DNA from: an uncultured Nitrospirales bacterium
GTDB lineage: Bacteria; Nitrospirota; Nitrospiria; Nitrospirales; UBA8639
Length of the DNA stretch: 64,000 nt
Assembly (NCBI GenBank): GCA_951812745.1
Contig: OX638327.1
Coordinates: forward strand, 1,165,914 to 1,229,913
Reading direction: 5' to 3'
Notes under the pieces: model-generated
Told to the model about the DNA's origin: nothing
The model's database searches: none
What the model saw: only the letters and a program-made list of their open reading frames with translations
Position numbers and translations under genes: made by a program
Part shown: piece by piece, positions 36,600 through 54,270 of the stretch
Position numbering within the stretch: position 1 is the first letter of the stretch
How the letters are laid out: each line of letters opens with the position of its first letter

Positions 36600-36662
36600 C
36601 AACTGTTCATGTTCCCCATTGGTTTGCACAATCGGTTTTCAGAAAACCCTGACACGTGACAA

Positions 36663-36729
36663 TTTAACACCGGGGCTGCGGCAATGTAACCCTCAGATAA
36701 CAAATCGCCCCGGGAAATCGCGTAAAAAT
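36663..36729 (+). promoter_or_regulatory. Pho-box-like array + -10 (promoter of the 814-aa/PSD/Lgt/TPR operon)
   Basis: In-phase hexamers TTTAAC (36663), ggctgc, TGTAAC (36685), GATAAC (36696), gccccg, then 10 nt, then TAAAAAT at 36723. Confidence 0.55.
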
Positions 36730-36792: not shown

Positions 36793-39237
36793 ATGCTGAT
36801 AAAAACCGAATCGCCATCCTCAACCGTTCAAACGTTTTCTTCTGATCACCAACAAAGGGTCGAACGTCTGGCCGACGTACTCGGTGCCGGCGGGCGCTCA
36901 TCAAATTTGAACCTCTGCAGTCTCCCCTTCGCACCGGACGACGTGACAGCGGGCTCGGAAAACGAATACCAAACCGCGGTATTGGGCACGACGAAACACG
37001 TCGACCTACCCATTACCCTGCAAACGTCCAATTTTTACAAAAACCTGGTCAAACAAACCTGGCGCAAAGGGGCTCCCTTCGCGAAAGCGGGGGGCCATTC
37101 CAAACGCAGCAAATCCGAACTCGAGGCTTATTTGGCTCACGAATCCAACGACGTCTGGGAAAACAGTTGGGTCCGGTTTCCGAGGCGGACGCTCGGTCCG
37201 TTTGCCAGACAGGTGCTTCAACATGATCTCCTGGCCGACAAAAAAGACCTTGCCGGCCCGCCGAGACGAGACATCAGGAAGGTGGTGTTTTATCAGGATG
37301 GGGAAGAGTGGGTCCGCGTTCCAATCAGTTACCTCTCGCGCCTCGCATTGGCCGACGTCATAAGCGGCAAGGCCCCTTCCGCCATTCGTCGCATCGGCGA
37401 ACGCCTCATGGATCACTTTCTGAATGACAACACGTCTCCGGAAACGTGCAGCTTCTATATCATGAACCTGCATCAGGATACCAAGATGGGACGTACAGTC
37501 GGGAAGGAAGCGAGCAAACGGTTCTTTCTCAGTCATTTACTGACCACGTACGCCAACCGGAAGTTCGCGTTGCTCGAAACGGGCCAACGGGCCCTGATGT
37601 ATTTTGCGCCGCATCCGCCAATCCGTCAAAAACGTCTCAACGGTCTCATTTCCGACAACTTTTATCGGGAACTCTTCATGAACCCCTGTTTGTCGGGATG
37701 GGACAACGGGCCAGACAAGCACGAGTATATGCGACTCTGCCATGAGGTGCTGTCACGAAGTCACCAGCACGTGATTGGAAAGCTCAAGAATGCCGGAATC
37801 ATTACACGCAATCTGGTCGTCCCGACCAGCCCCTCCAACATCAGCCTGGCAAATAACGGCACCCACGTCAGCTTGGGAAGCCGAAAATTGACACAGCTTT
37901 CCCGAACCATGCCCGACGAATTTACACCCCGCGATGAAAAATATTTCGGGGATCTCGTGACGAAAGTCGCCGAGCATTTCCTTCCGTTATTCGTCGGAAC
38001 CTACAGCGCCGCTCCGTATCGTTTGGACTTCTGGGACTTTCATCCGGAAAACGTGCTGGGCTTTCTCCCCCATGAATTAGATCACCAATTTCTGCGTTTA
38101 CTCTGGCAGCGGTGGAAACGAAAGGCCGGCTTGCGGTTCTTCGGGAAACCCGTCACGCCCCTGGGACCGGTGTGGTTGGACAAGGCGTTGAGCTACGGGT
38201 TTGGGATGCGAGGGGATTATATCCCCGATTTCCGGCTCATCGATTATCTGGTCGTCCTGCCGAGCACGGAAGAATGTCCTGCCCTCGACGGCACGCTTGG
38301 GAACGACCTTCGGCTCAAACGAGACCTGGCCGAACAGGGCATCTATGACGAACGAATGTCCTTTTATCAGCTTTATAAACTCCGAACGTTTTCCACAATG
38401 GGATTTTCCGGATTCGAGGGCCGGTACTATAGTTTGTTTGAAAGCCTCCTCGACGACATGGGAGAAGCCGCCAGTCTTCAGGCTTTGGTCACCGCGTTGG
38501 CGTTCAAATATATCTTCCAATTTGATGTGCAGCCTTCCGACATTTCCGACGACCCCGCCACGGAAAGTGAACGGCGACAGATCTTTTTCGGGGCGGCCGT
38601 CAATCTCCCCACCTTCTACGTCCGTGCCGACACGTCGAACTGGTTTCTGAAACGCATCCTGGCCCGAACGCCGAAAGTGCGGCTGAGTCGACGATTTTCC
38701 TCATATTATCGGGTCCATTATCGGGAATATGGCCGAACCCTCTTGACGATTCTCCGGGAGGACGGCCCGGACCTCATTGAAGCCTTTCAACTGCACGACG
38801 TCATGGACAAACTCAAAGACCGGCTCGAAAACCCTGATGATTGCTCGACGTTCGGGAAGCTGACGAAAGGCATACTGCAGGAAAGTGGGGCAACCTCCCC
38901 CTTCAGTCTTTCAGGAGAGGAGTACAACACAGCCGCTGAAACCTACTATCGTCACACGCTTCGACAACGACACCTCAGCGAAGCGATTCAGGAATTGGAA
39001 GTTGATTGCGCCGCCCTGGATGACTGTACGGGCTCAACCCTTCACACGAGCAAAGCCCTCATGCAAACCATCCTGGGGCCTTCCACGTCCGCGGGATCCT
39101 TTCTGGAACGCACAAAGCCCGTACTGATCGACGAAACGATCTCCCTCCCTCAACTCACGAAATTGATTTATCTGGTGTTGATCACCTTACTGGTCGATGA
39201 GCAACGTGCCGGCGATCATGAATCCGAAATTGATTAG
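36793..39237 (+). CDS. large conserved-looking protein of unknown function (814 aa)
   Basis: GAAGAGG lies 6 nt before the ATG. The ORF is uninterrupted with normal composition. I see no P-loop, TM helix or signal peptide. Possible metal/ligand-type motif SLANNGTHVSLGS. I recognise no family. Confidence 0.7.
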   Translation: MLIKTESPSSTVQTFSSDHQQRVERLADVLGAGGRSSNLNLCSLPFAPDDVTAGSENEYQTAVLGTTKHVDLPITLQTSNFYKNLVKQTWRKGAPFAKAGGHSKRSKSELEAYLAHESNDVWENSWVRFPRRTLGPFARQVLQHDLLADKKDLAGPPRRDIRKVVFYQDGEEWVRVPISYLSRLALADVISGKAPSAIRRIGERLMDHFLNDNTSPETCSFYIMNLHQDTKMGRTVGKEASKRFFLSHLLTTYANRKFALLETGQRALMYFAPHPPIRQKRLNGLISDNFYRELFMNPCLSGWDNGPDKHEYMRLCHEVLSRSHQHVIGKLKNAGIITRNLVVPTSPSNISLANNGTHVSLGSRKLTQLSRTMPDEFTPRDEKYFGDLVTKVAEHFLPLFVGTYSAAPYRLDFWDFHPENVLGFLPHELDHQFLRLLWQRWKRKAGLRFFGKPVTPLGPVWLDKALSYGFGMRGDYIPDFRLIDYLVVLPSTEECPALDGTLGNDLRLKRDLAEQGIYDERMSFYQLYKLRTFSTMGFSGFEGRYYSLFESLLDDMGEAASLQALVTALAFKYIFQFDVQPSDISDDPATESERRQIFFGAAVNLPTFYVRADTSNWFLKRILARTPKVRLSRRFSSYYRVHYREYGRTLLTILREDGPDLIEAFQLHDVMDKLKDRLENPDDCSTFGKLTKGILQESGATSPFSLSGEEYNTAAETYYRHTLRQRHLSEAIQELEVDCAALDDCTGSTLHTSKALMQTILGPSTSAGSFLERTKPVLIDETISLPQLTKLIYLVLITLLVDEQRAGDHESEID

Positions 39238-40273
39238 TTCAGGCCTGCATCAATATATCGATCGCGAAACCGCCAGTGTGCAAAGCGAGCAACTGTACGG
39301 GGACCGGGTCGTCAACTATCTCTACTCGGCCGTCAGGGAAAAGGCTCCGACCCTGTTTAAGGCGCTTACCTCATCGTCAATCTCTTATCTGGTCGGCCTT
39401 TGGAATTATGACGTCACCTTCGGCCCTGCGTCATCAGGGGTCTCGTCGTTCTGTCGAAAGTTGGGCATCAATCTCTCGGAATGCGTGGACAGTCCTGCGA
39501 CGTTCGATTCTCCACGTAAAGTGTTTGAACGCAAGATCCGATATTGGGAACGTCGCCCCATGGACTCCGCGGCTTCCATTCTCGTTTCGCCTGCGGATTC
39601 GAAGGTGCTTCTCGGGTCCTTGCAGACCAGTTCTCAACTGTTCTTGAAGGGGAAATTTTTCGACGTGTATGAATTGTTGGGTCAAGAAAAGGCGTTGTGG
39701 CATCGGACGTTTCAAGACGGAGATTTTGCCATCTTTCGTCTGACACCCGACGAATATCATTACAACCACTCACCGGTTTCCGGTGTGGTCGTGGATTATT
39801 ATGAAGTGGACGGCACCTATCATAGCTGCAACCCGGGTCCGATTATTTCGGTGGTCACACCTTATTCGAAAAATAAGCGGGTGGTCACCGTGATCGATAC
39901 GGACGTTCCGGGCGGGACACGTGCCGGGCTCGTCGCCATGATTGAAATCGTAGCCCTGATGATCGGCGCGATCGATCAATGCTACAGCGAACACTTTTAC
40001 GAGAACCCGCAGAAAATGGAAAAAGGTCTTTTCGTCAAAAAAGGGCAGCCGAAAAGCCTGTATCGGCCCGGGAGTTCAACCGACGTGCTTCTGTTGCAAC
40101 GCGGACGGGTCGACTTTTCTCAGGACTTGCGCCTGAACCAGCGACGGCGAGACGCCATCAGTCGATATTCATTGGGTTTTGGACGTCCGGCCGTCGAGAC
40201 GGCGGTCAAAGTTCGCTCGACCATCGGACAAGCCCTGCCCTCCATGCGCGATATGGAGACTCATGTGTCATGA
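39197..40273 (+). CDS. phosphatidylserine decarboxylase-family (pyruvoyl) enzyme, long divergent form
   Basis: FRLTPDEYHYNHSPVSG (PSD core) and YRPGSSTDVLL (G-S self-cleavage site). Overlaps the upstream ORF end. The start is uncertain (39197 or 39218). Confidence 0.7.
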   Translation: MSNVPAIMNPKLISSGLHQYIDRETASVQSEQLYGDRVVNYLYSAVREKAPTLFKALTSSSISYLVGLWNYDVTFGPASSGVSSFCRKLGINLSECVDSPATFDSPRKVFERKIRYWERRPMDSAASILVSPADSKVLLGSLQTSSQLFLKGKFFDVYELLGQEKALWHRTFQDGDFAIFRLTPDEYHYNHSPVSGVVVDYYEVDGTYHSCNPGPIISVVTPYSKNKRVVTVIDTDVPGGTRAGLVAMIEIVALMIGAIDQCYSEHFYENPQKMEKGLFVKKGQPKSLYRPGSSTDVLLLQRGRVDFSQDLRLNQRRRDAISRYSLGFGRPAVETAVKVRSTIGQALPSMRDMETHVS

Positions 40274-41361
40274 GCATTTCTGATTTGCCGCACGTCTCAA
40301 TAGACAGTCCCGGGGGATTATCTTTCCTGTTCTTGGGCATCGTCAGCCTTGCCGTGTTTTTTCTTTTTCGATGGGCCTTTGCCATCCTCCCCAGGGAACA
40401 GTGGCAAATCATGGCGGTGCTCCCGCGACACCGGGCCGACTCGAACCGATGGCACGGGCTGAACCTGACCTACTATGGATTCATCACGGCCAGTGCCGTC
40501 ACGCTGGCCGTCGGCAATGCGTTGTTTCTCCTGGGAACGATTCAGATCCCGCTTGGGGTCTCCCTGCTGTTCGTCCTCTCTCTCATGAGCCTGGCGGTTC
40601 CTGCTTCCAAAATCATCGCCAAAGTCGTCGAAAAAAAAGCGTTTACCTTCACGATCGGGGGAGCGTCCTTCACGGGCCTCGTCATGGCGCCCGTGATGGC
40701 TGTCGCGATCAATGGGATGCATCACCAGCCTGACGTGCTGCCGGTTCTTCCGGCACTCTCCGCACTGATGATCTCCTTCGCCCTTGGCGAAGGCATCGGA
40801 AGACTGGCCTGCATCAGCTATGGCTGCTGTTACGGGAAGCCGCTTTCCGCCTGTTCGCCGATCATGCAAGCGTTGTTCAAGACCCTGCACTTTCGCTTTA
40901 CAGGCGCCATCAAGAAAATTGCGTATGCCGGCAACCTCGAATCCGTTCCAGTGGTTCCCATTCAGGCCATCACGGCCATCGTCTCCACGGCGGGCTACAT
41001 CATCGGTATGGGATTGTTCCTGACGGGACGCTTTGCAGCAAGTCTTTTGGTCTCCTTGATGATCACGCAAGCCTGGCGTGCCGTCTCGGAAACCTGGCGG
41101 GCGGATTACCGGGGGACAGGATCGATTTCCATGTACCAGGTGATGTCCGTCGTCGGAATAGGTTACATGATCGCCGTCATGATGGTTGTGCCCTCTTTCC
41201 CGCTTGCTTTTCCAAACCTTCTCGTGGGGCTTCACTCTCTGTGGAACCCGACGGTGCTGCTCTTTCTTCAAAGCGCCTGGATCGGCATCTTCCTTTTTAT
41301 GGGAAGAAGCCGCATGACGGGCTCCGTGCTGTCCTTCTTTGTTCACAAAGAACATCTGTGA
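40270..41361 (+). CDS. Lgt-family (prolipoprotein diacylglyceryl transferase-like) polytopic membrane protein
   Basis: GRLACISYGCCYGKP and VPVVPIQAITAI resemble the Lgt GR.GN/C...G and P.Q..E motifs. It has about 8 TM segments. The ATG overlaps the upstream TGA (ATGA). Confidence 0.6.
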   Translation: MSISDLPHVSIDSPGGLSFLFLGIVSLAVFFLFRWAFAILPREQWQIMAVLPRHRADSNRWHGLNLTYYGFITASAVTLAVGNALFLLGTIQIPLGVSLLFVLSLMSLAVPASKIIAKVVEKKAFTFTIGGASFTGLVMAPVMAVAINGMHHQPDVLPVLPALSALMISFALGEGIGRLACISYGCCYGKPLSACSPIMQALFKTLHFRFTGAIKKIAYAGNLESVPVVPIQAITAIVSTAGYIIGMGLFLTGRFAASLLVSLMITQAWRAVSETWRADYRGTGSISMYQVMSVVGIGYMIAVMMVVPSFPLAFPNLLVGLHSLWNPTVLLFLQSAWIGIFLFMGRSRMTGSVLSFFVHKEHL

Positions 41362-42089
41362 GACACCCCGCGTTTCCGGGCACCTGTCTTCTCTGTCTCC
41401 TGCTCATCTTTTCGTGTCATCTCCCGTCGTGGAGTCAAAAGTTTTCCATTCCGGAAGGGTATCCCGAGTCCCTTCGCCAGCAACGAGACGACTTCACCGC
41501 AGCCTTGATCGAGGATCTCAAGAATCCTCAACTCTGGAAGCTGTTGTCGCACGCGTACCTGAACATGGCAGATGATCTGTTCACCGACACATCAGAAAAA
41601 ATTGAAGCGTATGACAAAGGACTGAAAGCCGCCACCCAAGCCATGACGCTTCACCCGGATGATGCCGAAACGCATTTCCTCTACGCCGCGAACCTGGGGA
41701 GCGCCACGCAATTGCGAGGCATCACGTCCGGGGCCGTCAATCTCTCGGACATCATAAAACACGTAGACCGTGCCATTGAACTCGACCCGCACCATGCCCC
41801 GTCGTTACAGATGAAGGGAGGCTTAATGGCCGAATTGCCCTGGTATCTCGGCGGCAACGCGAAACTGGCCAAAGACTATCTTCGTCGGGCCATCGAGGCG
41901 GACGGCAAGTTTACCAACGCTCGGATCATCCTGGCCAAGTTGCTCATCAAAGAAGGAGAGCTTGAGGAGGCCAAATCTCAACTCCTCGCCGTGATTCAGG
42001 CCCGAAACCCGCATTACCCCTATACATGGGAAAAACGATTTCGGCCCGAAGCGCAACGGCTCCTGGATGAGCTTCAAAATCGCCAGTAA
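41358..42089 (+). CDS. TPR-like lipoprotein
   Basis: The GTG overlaps the upstream stop (GTGA). VRHPAFPGTCLLCLLLIFSC is lipobox-like, followed by helical TPR-like repeats. Confidence 0.6.
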   Translation: MRHPAFPGTCLLCLLLIFSCHLPSWSQKFSIPEGYPESLRQQRDDFTAALIEDLKNPQLWKLLSHAYLNMADDLFTDTSEKIEAYDKGLKAATQAMTLHPDDAETHFLYAANLGSATQLRGITSGAVNLSDIIKHVDRAIELDPHHAPSLQMKGGLMAELPWYLGGNAKLAKDYLRRAIEADGKFTNARIILAKLLIKEGELEEAKSQLLAVIQARNPHYPYTWEKRFRPEAQRLLDELQNRQ

Positions 42090-43621: not shown

Positions 43622-43637
43622 GGTGTCTGAGTCTACT

Positions 43638-43709
43638 GTCGGGTTATGCTACGCTAACCCGACCTACCCGACACCCTCTCCCCCTGGGAGAGGGTTGGGG
43701 TGAGGGAGG
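43638..43709. repeat. REP family A + family B
   Basis: gtcgggttatgctacgctaacccgacctac...caccctctccccctgggagagggttggggtgagggagg. Confidence 0.9.
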
Positions 43710-43721
43710 AATGGTCTACAC

Positions 43722-53768: not shown

Positions 53769-53824
53769 GCTGCAACCCTCCTTCTGAAGAATGTATTTGC
53801 GGTACCGTTCCCTGGCAGTTGCCT

Positions 53825-53879
53825 ACTCTAACGGTTGAATGTTTCCCGGACGTAAAAAGTAGGTTACGAAATTGTTAAG
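53825..53879 (-). promoter_or_regulatory. Pho-box-like array + -10 (pstS promoter)
   Basis: The minus strand reads CTTAAC/CGTAAC/TTTTAC/GGAAAC (plus-strand starts 53874, 53863, 53852, 53841; 11-bp phase), then 10 nt, then TAGAGT. Confidence 0.65.
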
Positions 53880-54073
53880 CGAAAGGGGCTACCCGGAGGC
53901 CCTCATGCTTCGGCCCTGCCGGTCTGCCAAACGAAACGGCCGTGTTCACACGGAATGGACGTCTGCACTATACGGGGAGCGTATTGCAGTCACATATGAG
54001 AAGGGTTACACCTCGGTAAATTTTCTGCGCCCTCTTACATGGAAGAGGCTGTTGTGTAGGGCGTCCCTGCCGA

Positions 54074-54270
54074 ACCCCCCTGGCCCCCCTTATCAGGGGG
54101 GAAAAGACTTGCTGCTGTCCCCTGCTCAGGGGGAGAGAGGAGTTCTGCTGTCCCCCTGACAAGGGGGATTGAGGGGGTTGTCTTCCAAAGGCGGGGCAGG
54201 CACGGGGGCCGTCCCCTACAACGACCATGATGGAGGGACAGGGTTAGCGTGGCGTAGCGTAACCCGACCA
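54074..54270. repeat. cluster of REP elements (families E, D, A)
   Basis: cccccttatcagggggg...cccctgctcaggggg...ccccctgacaaggggg; ggcacgggggccgtcccctacaac; gggttagcgtggcgtagcgtaacccgac. Confidence 0.85.

Follow-up and report, generated by a model that had tools for sequence, protein, structure and literature searches.

What does a protein of 814 residues do when no sequence family claims it and its gene lies beside genes for lipid-type enzymes? The question is raised by a gene in a 64,000-nucleotide stretch of DNA from an uncultured Nitrospirales bacterium, which is called the window here. A sequence-only reading had described a long open reading frame with a good ribosome-binding site and no recognizable domain, Walker motif or transmembrane segment, and had guessed, from one Gly/His strand, at a carboxylate-amine ligase of the glutamate-cysteine ligase (GCL)/glutamine synthetase (GS) type that builds a head group. 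The description of the gene held: the frame translates into 814 residues without a stop, an AGAGG Shine-Dalgarno sequence lies 5 to 6 nt upstream of its ATG, and Walker A is absent. A small correction concerns the transmembrane segment, since the protein has a C-terminal hydrophobic helix (residues 782 to 801; Kyte-Doolittle, 1.89), packed into a helical bundle in the AlphaFold2 (AF2) model. The gene is real, because more than 2,900 homologues (50 to 87% identity) occur across phyla and their alignment, which the same reading had proposed as a check, contains 54 invariant columns; the alternative of a strain-specific open reading frame is not borne out.

The absence of a recognizable domain was also confirmed at the sequence level. 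The protein gave no match at E≤1 in Pfam and NCBIfam, and nothing even at E≤1 to 10 in Pfam, NCBIfam and PDB sequences; phmmer of the PDB and hmmsearch with a 59-sequence profile were likewise empty. The Pfam gathering thresholds of Glu_cys_ligase (PF04262) and GCS2 (PF04107) were not reached, which places the protein outside both sequence families. With hhalign, the 59-sequence profile yielded nothing significant against E. coli GshA and the genome's own GCS2 protein, the best match to a small GCS2 alignment covering 14 residues at 0.8% probability, and an ESM Atlas search returned only the unnamed clusters of the ligase family itself. No sequence method thus ties the protein to GCL, and its divergence probably exceeds what sequence profiles can detect. 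The genome carries a separate true GCS2 gene, apart from the 814-residue ligase, while the GshA-type PF04262 is absent from this UBA8639-lineage genome and from 20 relatives.

Structure prediction and a fold search, the other checks that had been proposed, gave a different picture. The AF2 model is confident (pLDDT 92.2, pTM 0.93), and the Foldseek top matches are all GCL, GshF, PafA/Dop, YbdK or GS. With VIA, the best match was E. coli GshA (1v4g; Z 17.1, 410 residues aligned, rmsd 4.1), ahead of YbdK (Z 15.6), PafA (Z 14.4) and GlnA (Z 9.2). When 48,161 chains were searched without bias, the 19 highest-ranking ones all belonged to the GCL/GS superfamily, and unrelated chains began at Z 5.8. 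Taken over two fold searches, one of them independent of Foldseek, all 19 to 26 matches above noise (Z 17.1 to 6) were GCL, YbdK, PafA/Dop or glutamine synthetase; 1-naphthylamine GS and gamma-glutamylmethylamide synthetase are among the GS-type ones. The open beta-sheet "funnel" that forms the catalytic fold of this superfamily is present in the model. By its predicted fold, the 814-residue protein falls within the GCL/GS carboxylate-amine ligase superfamily, as a cryptic member. The earlier guess was right in this part, because a confident model matches only that superfamily; ligase activity and substrates remain inferred.

The Gly/His stretch that had suggested the superfamily was indeed found at about residues 340 to 363 (ending in NLVVPTSPSNISLANNGTHVSLGS), where it holds the family-invariant G356, H358 and S363. 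Its strand 357-363 (G-T-H-V-S-L-G) matches, by motif order, the G-x-H-V-H-V-G strand of GCS2 proteins. Other invariants of the family are E56, E58, E542 and R544, and the GCS2 invariants G.E.E, H.H, P..S..SP and E.R appear in the same order as G54-E56-E58, G356-H358, FLPLFVGTYSAAPY (residues 396 to 409) and E542-R544. In this superfamily, acidic residues and a His on the sheet (E-x-E, His strand, E-x-R) serve in metal and ATP binding. In the model, strand 51-58 bears E56 and E58, strand 357-363 bears H358, and strand 540-546 bears E542 and R544. This assignment of catalytic residues is inferred from motif order and strand position, not from a residue-level superposition.

The likeness to characterized enzymes is one of fold, with clear differences. 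E. coli GshA (1V4G, 2D32) and the GCL domain of GshF (3LN6, 3LN7) share about 410 residues of the fold with the ligase (Z 15.6 to 17.1), as well as the order of the E-x-E, His-strand and E-x-R motifs, and the GshA reaction, joining the gamma-carboxyl of glutamate to the amine of cysteine, is the one that we propose for the 814-residue ligase. However, identity to GshA is about 10%, without profile-level similarity; some 300 additional residues are distributed along the chain, and the gene lies under a Pho box beside lipid-type enzymes rather than beside gshB. YbdK/GCS2 proteins (PF04107; 1R8G, 1TT4) superpose over 336 to 338 of their 354 to 358 residues (Z 15.0 to 15.6), but the ligase is more than twice as long and does not match PF04107; the sole echo at the sequence level is GCS2 FVPHFIALSAASPY against ligase FLPLFVGTYSAAPY. 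The Pup ligase PafA and the depupylase Dop have the superfamily fold in common with the ligase, including the C-terminal helical domain (Z 14.0 to 14.4), whereas the latter has lipid-type enzyme partners and no Pup or proteasome context.

These partners, one like phosphatidylserine decarboxylase (PSD) and one like prolipoprotein diacylglyceryl transferase (Lgt), are encoded by two genes that follow the ligase gene and overlap in the window (Table 1). The order ligase, PSD-like, Lgt-like was found in 44/44 loci with enough DNA, from Nitrospirota, Desulfobacterota, Acidobacteriota and SAR324. Such strict order argues for one pathway that includes a membrane transferase, and the earlier suggestion of a role in head-group building is consistent with these strictly conserved partners. 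Apparent ligase-PSD and PSD-Lgt fusions in three loci (L028, L041, L005) were rejected as spurious open frames or an HSP crossing a stop codon, and a search for fused cassette proteins of at least 1426 aa found none, which is weak evidence.

Table 1. Features of the cassette and its surroundings (positions in the window)
Feature	Position	Strand	Basis
Pho-box-like site TGTAACCCTCAGATAAC, 92-108 nt before the ligase ATG; two xTAAC units with an 11-bp period	36685..36701	+	KTAAC-N6-RTAAC pattern
Cryptic carboxylate-amine ligase (GCL/GS fold, predicted), 814 aa, cassette gene 1	36793..39237	+	AF2 model, VIA matches, invariant residues
Pyruvoyl decarboxylase paralogue of the PSD family, 358 aa; shares 41 nt with the ligase gene	39197..40273	+	PF02666
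Membrane transferase paralogue of the Lgt family, 364 aa, topology predicted to be inverted; start overlaps PSD-like stop	40267..41361	+	PF01790
TPR protein, lipobox-like N-terminus, fourth gene; true start probably downstream of 41241	41241..42089	+	TPR matches

The second protein belongs to the PSD family (PF02666; 120 bits, cut-off 22), but it fails the criterion for having the same function as Psd, its best score against the NCBIfam PSD equivalogs (138 bits) being far below the cut-off of 371. Its D134, H191 and G292-(S293)-S294 are the equivalents of E. coli D90, H147 and G253-S254. Among cassette copies, the Asp, His and Ser are kept in 48/48, while the glycine at the Gly-Ser cleavage site (G253 equivalent) is kept in 47/48. 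With its Asp-His-Ser triad and cleavage site, the cassette protein is a pyruvoyl proenzyme like Psd and like PsiD, a member of the family with a soluble substrate. Unlike Psd, the cassette protein is a second copy: a canonical psd is present elsewhere in the window, and canonical psd and lgt genes exist apart from the cassette both in the source genome and in Desulfatibacillum alkenivorans.

The third protein matches PF01790 (39.1 bits, cut-off 24.9), and its AF2 model (pLDDT 92) has the core fold of E. coli Lgt (5azc; VIA Z 12.6 over 231 of 284 residues; next best, 6.2). It retains equivalents of R143, R239, E243, R246, Y26 and G154, which are, in this order, its R179, R271, E275, R278, Y70 and G190, all invariant among cassette copies. 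The catalytic R143/R239/E243/R246 network, by which the C3-O bond of phosphatidylglycerol is activated (PMC4728403), is thereby preserved. In contrast to E. coli Lgt, in which H103 (HGGL motif) and E151 (signature motif) are required (PMC4728403), it carries the substitutions H103->T136, N146->C182 and E151->C187, both cysteines lying in the invariant motif GRLAC.S.GCCYG. Because H103, N146 and E151 are missing, the donor or the acceptor may differ; the acceptor is probably a small molecule. The distribution of charges differs as well: the side that is periplasmic in E. coli (head-domain side) bears a median of 23 K+R in the cassette copies versus 3 on the side that is cytoplasmic in E. coli, a bias seen in 44/44 copies, whereas E. 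coli Lgt has 6 versus 13. Two extra transmembrane helices, one on either side of the core, are consistent with an inverted topology. From this charge bias, and without experiment, we infer that the catalytic cavity faces the cytoplasm; with such a topology, all three enzymes would act at the cytoplasmic face.

The cassette is linked to phosphate genes and to a Pho box. The window, which contains genes for porin O/P and CHAD as well as ppx, ppk1 and pstSCAB-phoU, is a Pho island. The KTAAC-N6-RTAAC pattern occurs three times in it (0.10 expected), each time in a promoter (porin O/P, the ligase gene and pstS), and only six times in the 2.35-Mb genome; it was fixed only after inspection of these promoters. 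The site belongs to the cyanobacterial Pho-box type, which consists of PyTTAAPyPy(T/A) repeats 3 nt apart (PMC4195498). It is kept upstream of the ligase homologue in L001-L004 and L006, and a Pho-box-type repeat with an 11-bp period precedes the ligase gene in 12/42 nonredundant loci across phyla, where shuffles expect 0.74 (maximum, 4 in 2000). Within 5 kb of distant cassette loci, PstS-family genes were found in five, PhoH2-like genes in six and ppk1/ppx in one. Induction of the cassette by phosphate starvation is inferred from this context. A TGACA repeat with a 7-bp period at 36650-36669 was rejected as a regulatory motif, having no further copies in the window.

Swapping phospholipids for phosphorus-free lipids is a major microbial response to phosphate scarcity, and such lipids serve as environmental biomarkers. 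The BACys ("N-butyramide cysteine glycerol") lipids of D. alkenivorans PF2803T are made only under phosphorus limitation, with the same cores as the phospholipids of the strain (DAG, acyl/ether and diether); their head-group fragment, C7H13O3N2S+ (m/z 205.064), was read as "butyramide linked to cysteine" (Ding et al. 2024, PMC11181052). The structure is a tentative MS2 assignment, drawn as the "N-butyramide" isomer with an unproven glycerol linkage, and no genes were proposed (PMC11181052); our literature search found nothing relevant on BACys genes or on small-molecule Lgt paralogues. The head-group formula is that of decarboxylated gamma-Glu-Cys, the loss of CO2 giving C7H14N2O3S with a calculated [M-H]+ ion of 205.0641. 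The producer (DSM 16219 = PF2803T) carries the cassette (SHK73306.1, SHK73347.1 and SHK73389.1), with a Pho-box-like site at -102 and a similar array before one of its pstS genes. Such a box is absent from 4/5 of its PstS-family genes within the 1.5 kb fetched, and no Pho genes adjoin the cassette. Since the ligase gene is present in 83/301 sampled Desulfobacterales genomes, finding the cassette in this strain is weak evidence.

We propose, with roughly equal odds of being right or wrong, that the cassette makes S-diradylglyceryl-N-(4-aminobutanoyl)cysteine, a lipid of the BACys formula, in a pathway induced by phosphate starvation. The 814-residue ligase would couple glutamate, through its gamma-carboxyl, to the cysteine amino group in an ATP-dependent reaction. 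The PSD-type decarboxylase would then strip the glutamyl alpha-carboxyl, leaving a 4-aminobutanoyl (GABA) amide, and the Lgt paralogue would move a diradylglyceryl group from phosphatidylglycerol to the cysteine thiol, releasing glycerol phosphate. The product would be a phosphorus-free lipid containing sulfur and nitrogen, with the head-group formula C7H14N2O3S, and the last step would also free phosphorus from existing phospholipid. The identity of BACys and phospholipid cores fits such a head-group swap on existing phosphatidylglycerol, and phosphorus-limited synthesis finds its counterpart in the Pho boxes before the cassette. However, the published drawing is an N-butyramide isomer, not a 4-aminobutanoyl amide, and neither genetics nor biochemistry has connected the cassette with BACys. 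The fold, the conserved cassette, the intact catalytic motifs of the partners, the Pho-box association and the presence in a BACys strain are shown; ATP dependence, substrates, step order, the thioether and the product are inferred.

A bolder reading, against which the balance tips slightly in our judgment, takes the cassette as the complete pathway of a BACys-type thioether aminolipid. It would combine a new group of cryptic gamma-glutamyl-cysteine-type ligases, a PSD paralogue making GABA, and the first "inside-out" Lgt, lipidating a small-molecule thiol in the cytoplasm with phosphatidylglycerol. Phospholipid would be turned directly into phosphorus-free lipid, with recovery of phosphate. 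The pathway would be common among Desulfobacterota (roughly one in four of the Desulfobacterales sampled), with scattered occurrence in Nitrospirota, anammox bacteria and other groups, and the published BACys structure would be revised to N-(4-aminobutanoyl)-S-diradylglyceryl-cysteine. The proposed link would assign three genes to a lipid class described only in 2024, making it testable by knockout or heterologous expression, and genomes and metagenomes would allow producers to be predicted, Nitrospira-type nitrite oxidizers among them. A large unnamed enzyme family, with more than 2,900 sequences and no Pfam model, would join the GCL/GS superfamily, and the Lgt scaffold, known so far only from lipoprotein maturation at the periplasmic face, would have been reused in reverse for lipid head-group exchange.

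It remains possible that the same enzyme class and cassette yield another product, with different ligase substrates (an amino acid, an amine or a lipid-bound amine) and an undescribed head group or a BACys isomer. Fold and cassette are equally compatible with this, the substrate-binding residues could not be mapped, and GS-type relatives such as the 1-naphthylamine and gamma-glutamylmethylamide enzymes ligate amines other than cysteine. One such isomer is gamma-glutamyl-cysteamine on S-diradylglycerol, which would arise if the PSD-like enzyme acted first on S-diacylglyceryl-cysteine; that compound resembles phosphatidylserine, the usual PSD substrate, and gamma-Glu-cysteamine has the identical formula, C7H14N2O3S. 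However, the published C4 "butyramide" with intact cysteine fits GABA-Cys better than Glu-cysteamine, and the three activities do not correspond one-to-one to any other lipid described from these taxa.

Two further readings leave bulk lipid aside, and we regard both as very unlikely. In one, the 814-residue protein resembles PafA/Dop also in its activity, ligating or deamidating a protein or lipoprotein that the Lgt paralogue lipidates, so that the cassette modifies a polypeptide. PafA and Dop are strong structural matches, aligned to the very C-terminus, Lgt is known to act only on protein cysteines (PMC4728403), and a lipobox-bearing TPR protein follows the cassette in Nitrospirota. Yet outside this phylum the cassette has no conserved neighbor that could encode the substrate, GshA and YbdK outscore PafA (the YbdK chain aligning over 336/354 residues), decarboxylases of the PSD type require a free alpha-amino acid group, which in a protein exists only at the N-terminus, and a cytoplasm-facing Lgt cavity would be ill suited to exported prolipoproteins. 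In the other, the ligase serves redox or stress protection by making a soluble thiol of low molecular weight or a gamma-glutamyl compound, and the lipid-type neighbors are merely coregulated. A gamma-Glu-Cys-type thiol could be useful where PF04262 is lacking, as in the source genome and its relatives, and PSD-family enzymes such as PsiD can use soluble amino acids (PMC12603985). Against it stand the overlapping or closely spaced genes in a fixed order across phyla, with a membrane transferase among them, and Pho-box control, which suits lipid remodeling more than redox buffering.

The TPR gene itself follows the cassette only in the Nitrospirota loci L001-L007, L009 and L039. Its product shows a weak match, below cut-off, to the sterol-transporter lipoprotein BstC (E 1e-4), and has a hydrophobic segment at residues 43 to 63 that ends in LIFSC.

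The 814-aa protein encoded by the first cassette gene (the ligase) belongs to a real, widespread and unnamed family with the GCL/GS ligase fold. Its ORF is uninterrupted over 814 codons and is preceded by an AGAGG ribosome-binding site. The gene is real and under strong constraint, because it has more than 2,900 homologues in 90% clusters (712 representative clusters at 50% identity), nearly all of ~800 aa, with 50-55% identity between phyla and 54 invariant columns among 59 diverse members. Every one of these homologues is annotated as "hypothetical", without any Pfam domain. Searches of Pfam, NCBIfam and PDB sequences, including those with a 59-sequence profile, gave zero matches, and the sequence contains no Walker A motif. 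Thus, the sequence-only reading of an open ORF with a good ribosome-binding site and no Walker motif held, as did, at the sequence level, its statement that no domain is recognisable. Its claim that no TM segment is present held in part: the sole hydrophobic stretch is a C-terminal helix (residues 782-801, Kyte-Doolittle 1.89), which the model predicts to be packed inside a helical bundle.

The AlphaFold2 model of the ligase, built from the 59-sequence alignment, is very confident (pLDDT 92.2, pTM 0.93). Foldseek matches of non-trivial probability in the PDB all fell in one superfamily (GshA, GshF, yeast and plant GCL, PafA, Dop, YbdK, and type III GS), with marginal E-values (best, 4.5e-4). 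VIA re-alignment gave Z 17.1 with E. coli GshA (410 residues, rmsd 4.1), 15.6 with YbdK (336/354 residues), 14.4 with PafA, and 9.2 with GlnA, the next match falling to Z 3. In a Foldseek-independent search of 48,161 representative chains, the best 19, scoring between Z 16.4 and 6.2, all belonged to the GCL/GS superfamily; the first unrelated chain came at Z 5.8, and such chains aligned only to the C-terminal helices of the ligase. The predicted structure therefore identifies a carboxylate-amine ligase of GCL/GS fold, with ~300 additional residues scattered along the chain; that it performs an ATP-dependent Glu-Cys-type ligation is inferred.

This kinship is undetectable at the sequence level, bar one 14-residue echo of a GCS2 motif (FLPLFVGTYSAAPY in the ligase, FVPHFIALSAASPY in YbdK; probability, 0.8%). 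The order of the GCS2 invariants (G.E.E, H.H, P..S..SP..G, and E.R) is nevertheless repeated among the family-invariant residues of the ligase. From this order and the secondary structure, without superposition, we infer that these motifs may provide metal, ATP, and substrate ligands. A Gly/His stretch had previously been taken as a GCL/GS-like hint; fold comparison upholds the superfamily, and the stretch is the strand with G356/H358.

Coordinates of the features discussed (plain numbers are window positions or, for the motifs, ligase residues; L, related loci; G, genomes, G000 being that of the window; C1, contig)
Feature	Location	Remark
G54/E56/E58	ligase strand 51-58	family-invariant; order matches GCS2 invariants
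G356/H358	ligase strand 357-363	family-invariant; in the Gly/His stretch
Motif region	ligase residues 396-409	family-invariant; order matches GCS2 invariants
E542/R544	ligase strand 540-546	family-invariant; order matches GCS2 invariants
Ligase gene	36793-39237 (+)	first cassette gene
Pho-box-like site TGTAACCCTCAGATAAC	36685-36701	upstream of ligase gene; KTAAC-N6-RTAAC
Tandem 7-bp units	36650-36669	TGACACG TGACAAT TTAACAC
REP-like elements	53769-54100; 43622-43721	first region: pstS upstream, minus strand
TPR protein	41241-42089	
Truncated ligase copy	L040:8354-9796	G308
Ligase remnant	G492:C1:1447635-1447838	68 aa
GAF-ANTAR regulator gene	L058:3470-4264	D. alkenivorans
Radical-SAM/GT4 pairs	L029:12480-16240; L061:9383-12915; L011:552-5420; L015:2446-7648	~8 more loci
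HAD phosphatase genes	L011:10403-11125; L014:12928-13683; L015:12754-13476; L045:9827-10480	
GCS2/YbdK-type ligase gene	G000:C1:574508-575347 (L063)	165 bits
GCS2-like ORF, 496 aa	G000:C1:461300-461467 (L064)	weak

A PSD-family gene and then an Lgt-family gene come after the ligase gene in 44/44 related loci with enough downstream DNA, from Nitrospirota, many Desulfobacterota, Acidobacteriota, SAR324, and others; in two loci, the cassette is interrupted by an insertion. Adjacent cassette genes of the window overlap, at 39197-39237 and 40267-40273. Polyphosphate genes (ppx, IMPase, CHAD-CYTH, and ppk1) flank the cassette in close Nitrospirales only, while the three genes are constant, and therefore the functional unit consists of these three. 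The cassette is strictly conserved, and the residues kept by both partners suggest that they are catalytically competent. Its distribution is patchy, as expected of an accessory trait: the ligase gene is present in 83/301 sampled Desulfobacterales genomes and in 13/301 Nitrospirota genomes. Part of the genus of the window organism is losing the cassette: in one relative, the ligase gene breaks off at about residue 540, the PSD-like gene is missing and so is most of the Lgt-like gene, and another genome retains a lone ligase remnant.

Both partners are additional paralogues, canonical psd and lgt being found elsewhere in the window genome and in Desulfatibacillum alkenivorans. The PSD-like protein scores 120 bits on PF02666 but falls far under all PSD equivalog cut-offs. 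Residues matching E. coli D90, H147, and S254 are present in 48/48 cassette copies, and one matching G253 in 47/48. We infer that it is likely an active pyruvoyl decarboxylase with a different substrate; PsiD is a PSD-family enzyme with a soluble amino-acid substrate (PMC12603985). The Lgt-like protein clears the Pfam cut-off, and its model (pLDDT 92.2) has E. coli Lgt as its single clear structural match (Z 12.6, 231/284 residues; next, 6.2). It retains Y26, R143, G154, R239, E243, and R246 (E. coli numbering); in E. coli Lgt, these residues form the network activating the phosphatidylglycerol C3-O bond (PMC4728403). H103, N146, and E151 are substituted, the latter two by invariant cysteines in GRLAC.S.GCCYG, and an extra TM helix lies both before and after the Lgt core. 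In the cassette proteins, the loops corresponding to the periplasmic face of E. coli Lgt (head domain, arms, and L6-7) contain a median of 23 Lys+Arg, versus 3 on the opposite side, with the same direction in 44/44 copies, whereas E. coli Lgt shows the opposite bias (6 versus 13). The positive-inside rule would place the catalytic cavity of the paralogue on the cytoplasmic side, and there would therefore be no topological objection to coupling with two soluble cytoplasmic enzymes.

An association of the cassette with Pho boxes and Pho genes extends across several phyla. The window itself is a Pho island: it contains a phosphate-selective porin O/P, ppx, ppk1, CHAD-CYTH, and pstSCAB-phoU together with a two-component pair. 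It has three KTAAC-N6-RTAAC matches, against 0.10 expected, and the whole 2.35-Mb genome, a single contig, has only six; the three in the window are all correctly oriented in promoters (porin O/P, the ligase gene, and pstS). Four close relatives and one distant Nitrospirales relative retain the site upstream of their ligase homologues. A looser cross-locus pattern, [GT]TAA[CT]-N6-[GTA]TAA[CT], is found in the 300 nt before the ligase gene in 12/42 non-redundant loci from several phyla, mostly at -60 to -108 and in many cases with two or three units in phase. Shuffled sequences of matched composition gave 0.74 expected (maximum, 4 in 2000), the opposite strand of the same regions gave 3 matches, and regions upstream of neighbouring ORFs gave 13/284, including one pstS gene and radical-SAM/glycosyltransferase neighbours. 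Both patterns were defined after inspection of these same promoters. By sequence likeness, the motif equals the cyanobacterial Pho box, which consists of PyTTAAPyPy(T/A) repeats separated by 3 nt and is the binding site of the PhoB homologue SphR (PMC4195498). Furthermore, 5 distant loci have a PstS-family gene no more than 5 kb from the cassette (above NCBIfam cut-offs in the four of five tested), 6 loci have a PIN-PhoH2-like gene at such a distance, and one has ppk1 with ppx. Just upstream of the window's Pho-box-like site, the divergent IMPase/ligase intergenic region holds three tandem 7-bp units with no counterpart elsewhere in the window. GC-rich palindromic REP-like elements (e.g., CCCCCTTGTCAGGGGGACAGC and CCCCCTGGGAGAGGGTTGGGG) fill intergenic regions of the Pho island.

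Under phosphate limitation, D. alkenivorans PF2803T swaps nearly all phospholipids for glucuronosyl lipids and BACys, a new class of sulfur-containing aminolipids whose head-group fragment (C7H13O3N2S+, m/z 205.064) was read as butyramide joined to cysteine (Ding et al. 2024, PMC11181052). No genes for BACys were proposed there, nor in later papers in the literature searched. The inferred cassette activities correspond one-to-one to this structure. The amide at the cysteine nitrogen would come from a GCL-type ligase. The gamma-glutamyl group would be converted to a C4 4-aminobutanoyl unit by a PSD-type decarboxylase, an enzyme that requires a free alpha-amino acid, and an Lgt-type enzyme would transfer a diradylglyceryl group, with no phosphate, onto the cysteine thiol. 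Gamma-Glu-Cys minus CO2 is C7H14N2O3S, with a calculated [M-H]+ cation of 205.0641. That the fragment retains all three oxygens argues against an ester via the cysteine carboxyl and fits a sulfur link, although the thioether, like the step order, is inferred. BACys cores are diacyl, acyl/ether, and diether, as in the phospholipids of the same strain (PMC11181052), which would be explained if phosphatidylglycerol were the donor; the glycerol phosphate released would then be available for phosphorus recovery.

This proposal predicts that the BACys-producing strain should have the cassette, and the cassette is indeed present in D. alkenivorans DSM 16219, the type strain PF2803T (SHK73306.1, SHK73347.1, and SHK73389.1). 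Desulfobacterales loci with near-identical ligase matches were fetched, and proteins were identified by exact sequence; the same look-up placed the cassette in D. aliphaticivorans and strain AK-01 (ACL02230-ACL02232). The D. alkenivorans ligase gene has TTAACCTAAAATTAAT at -102, with another GTAAC in phase. One PstS-family gene of this strain has a four-unit array of this kind; the other four have none within the DNA fetched. The presence of the cassette in the producer is modest evidence, because ~28% of Desulfobacterales carry the ligase gene. BACys as the cassette product is an inference that we consider about as likely to be right as wrong; a related but different head group is a less likely but substantial alternative. 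Directly upstream of the D. alkenivorans cassette, in the same orientation, is a GAF-ANTAR regulator gene that might add a second layer of control there.

Recurrent neighbours suggest a wider lipid-remodelling island. In 10-12 Desulfobacterota loci, the cassette is adjoined by a radical-SAM gene (~430 aa) and a gene whose 815-aa product carries a GT4 domain at its C terminus; the nearest named relatives of this product are lipid head-group glycosyltransferases (all scores under cut-off), and several pairs have their own TTAAC-N6-TTAAY sites. Such pairs could serve a glycolipid arm of the same phosphate-starvation response. A HAD-family phosphatase gene directly follows the cassette in four loci: in three it is 17-82 nt beyond the Lgt-like gene and on the opposite strand, and in the fourth it is 576 nt away; its product might dephosphorylate glycerol phosphate from the proposed Lgt-type reaction. 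No GshA-type gene was found in the window genome or 20 relatives; the window genome has one true GCS2/YbdK-type ligase gene, plus another, weak GCS2-like ORF. Finally, a TPR protein with a lipobox-like N terminus (...LIFSC) follows the cassette in Nitrospirota only; it weakly matches, below threshold, the outer-membrane sterol-transporter lipoprotein BstC and is possibly a lipid-handling accessory.
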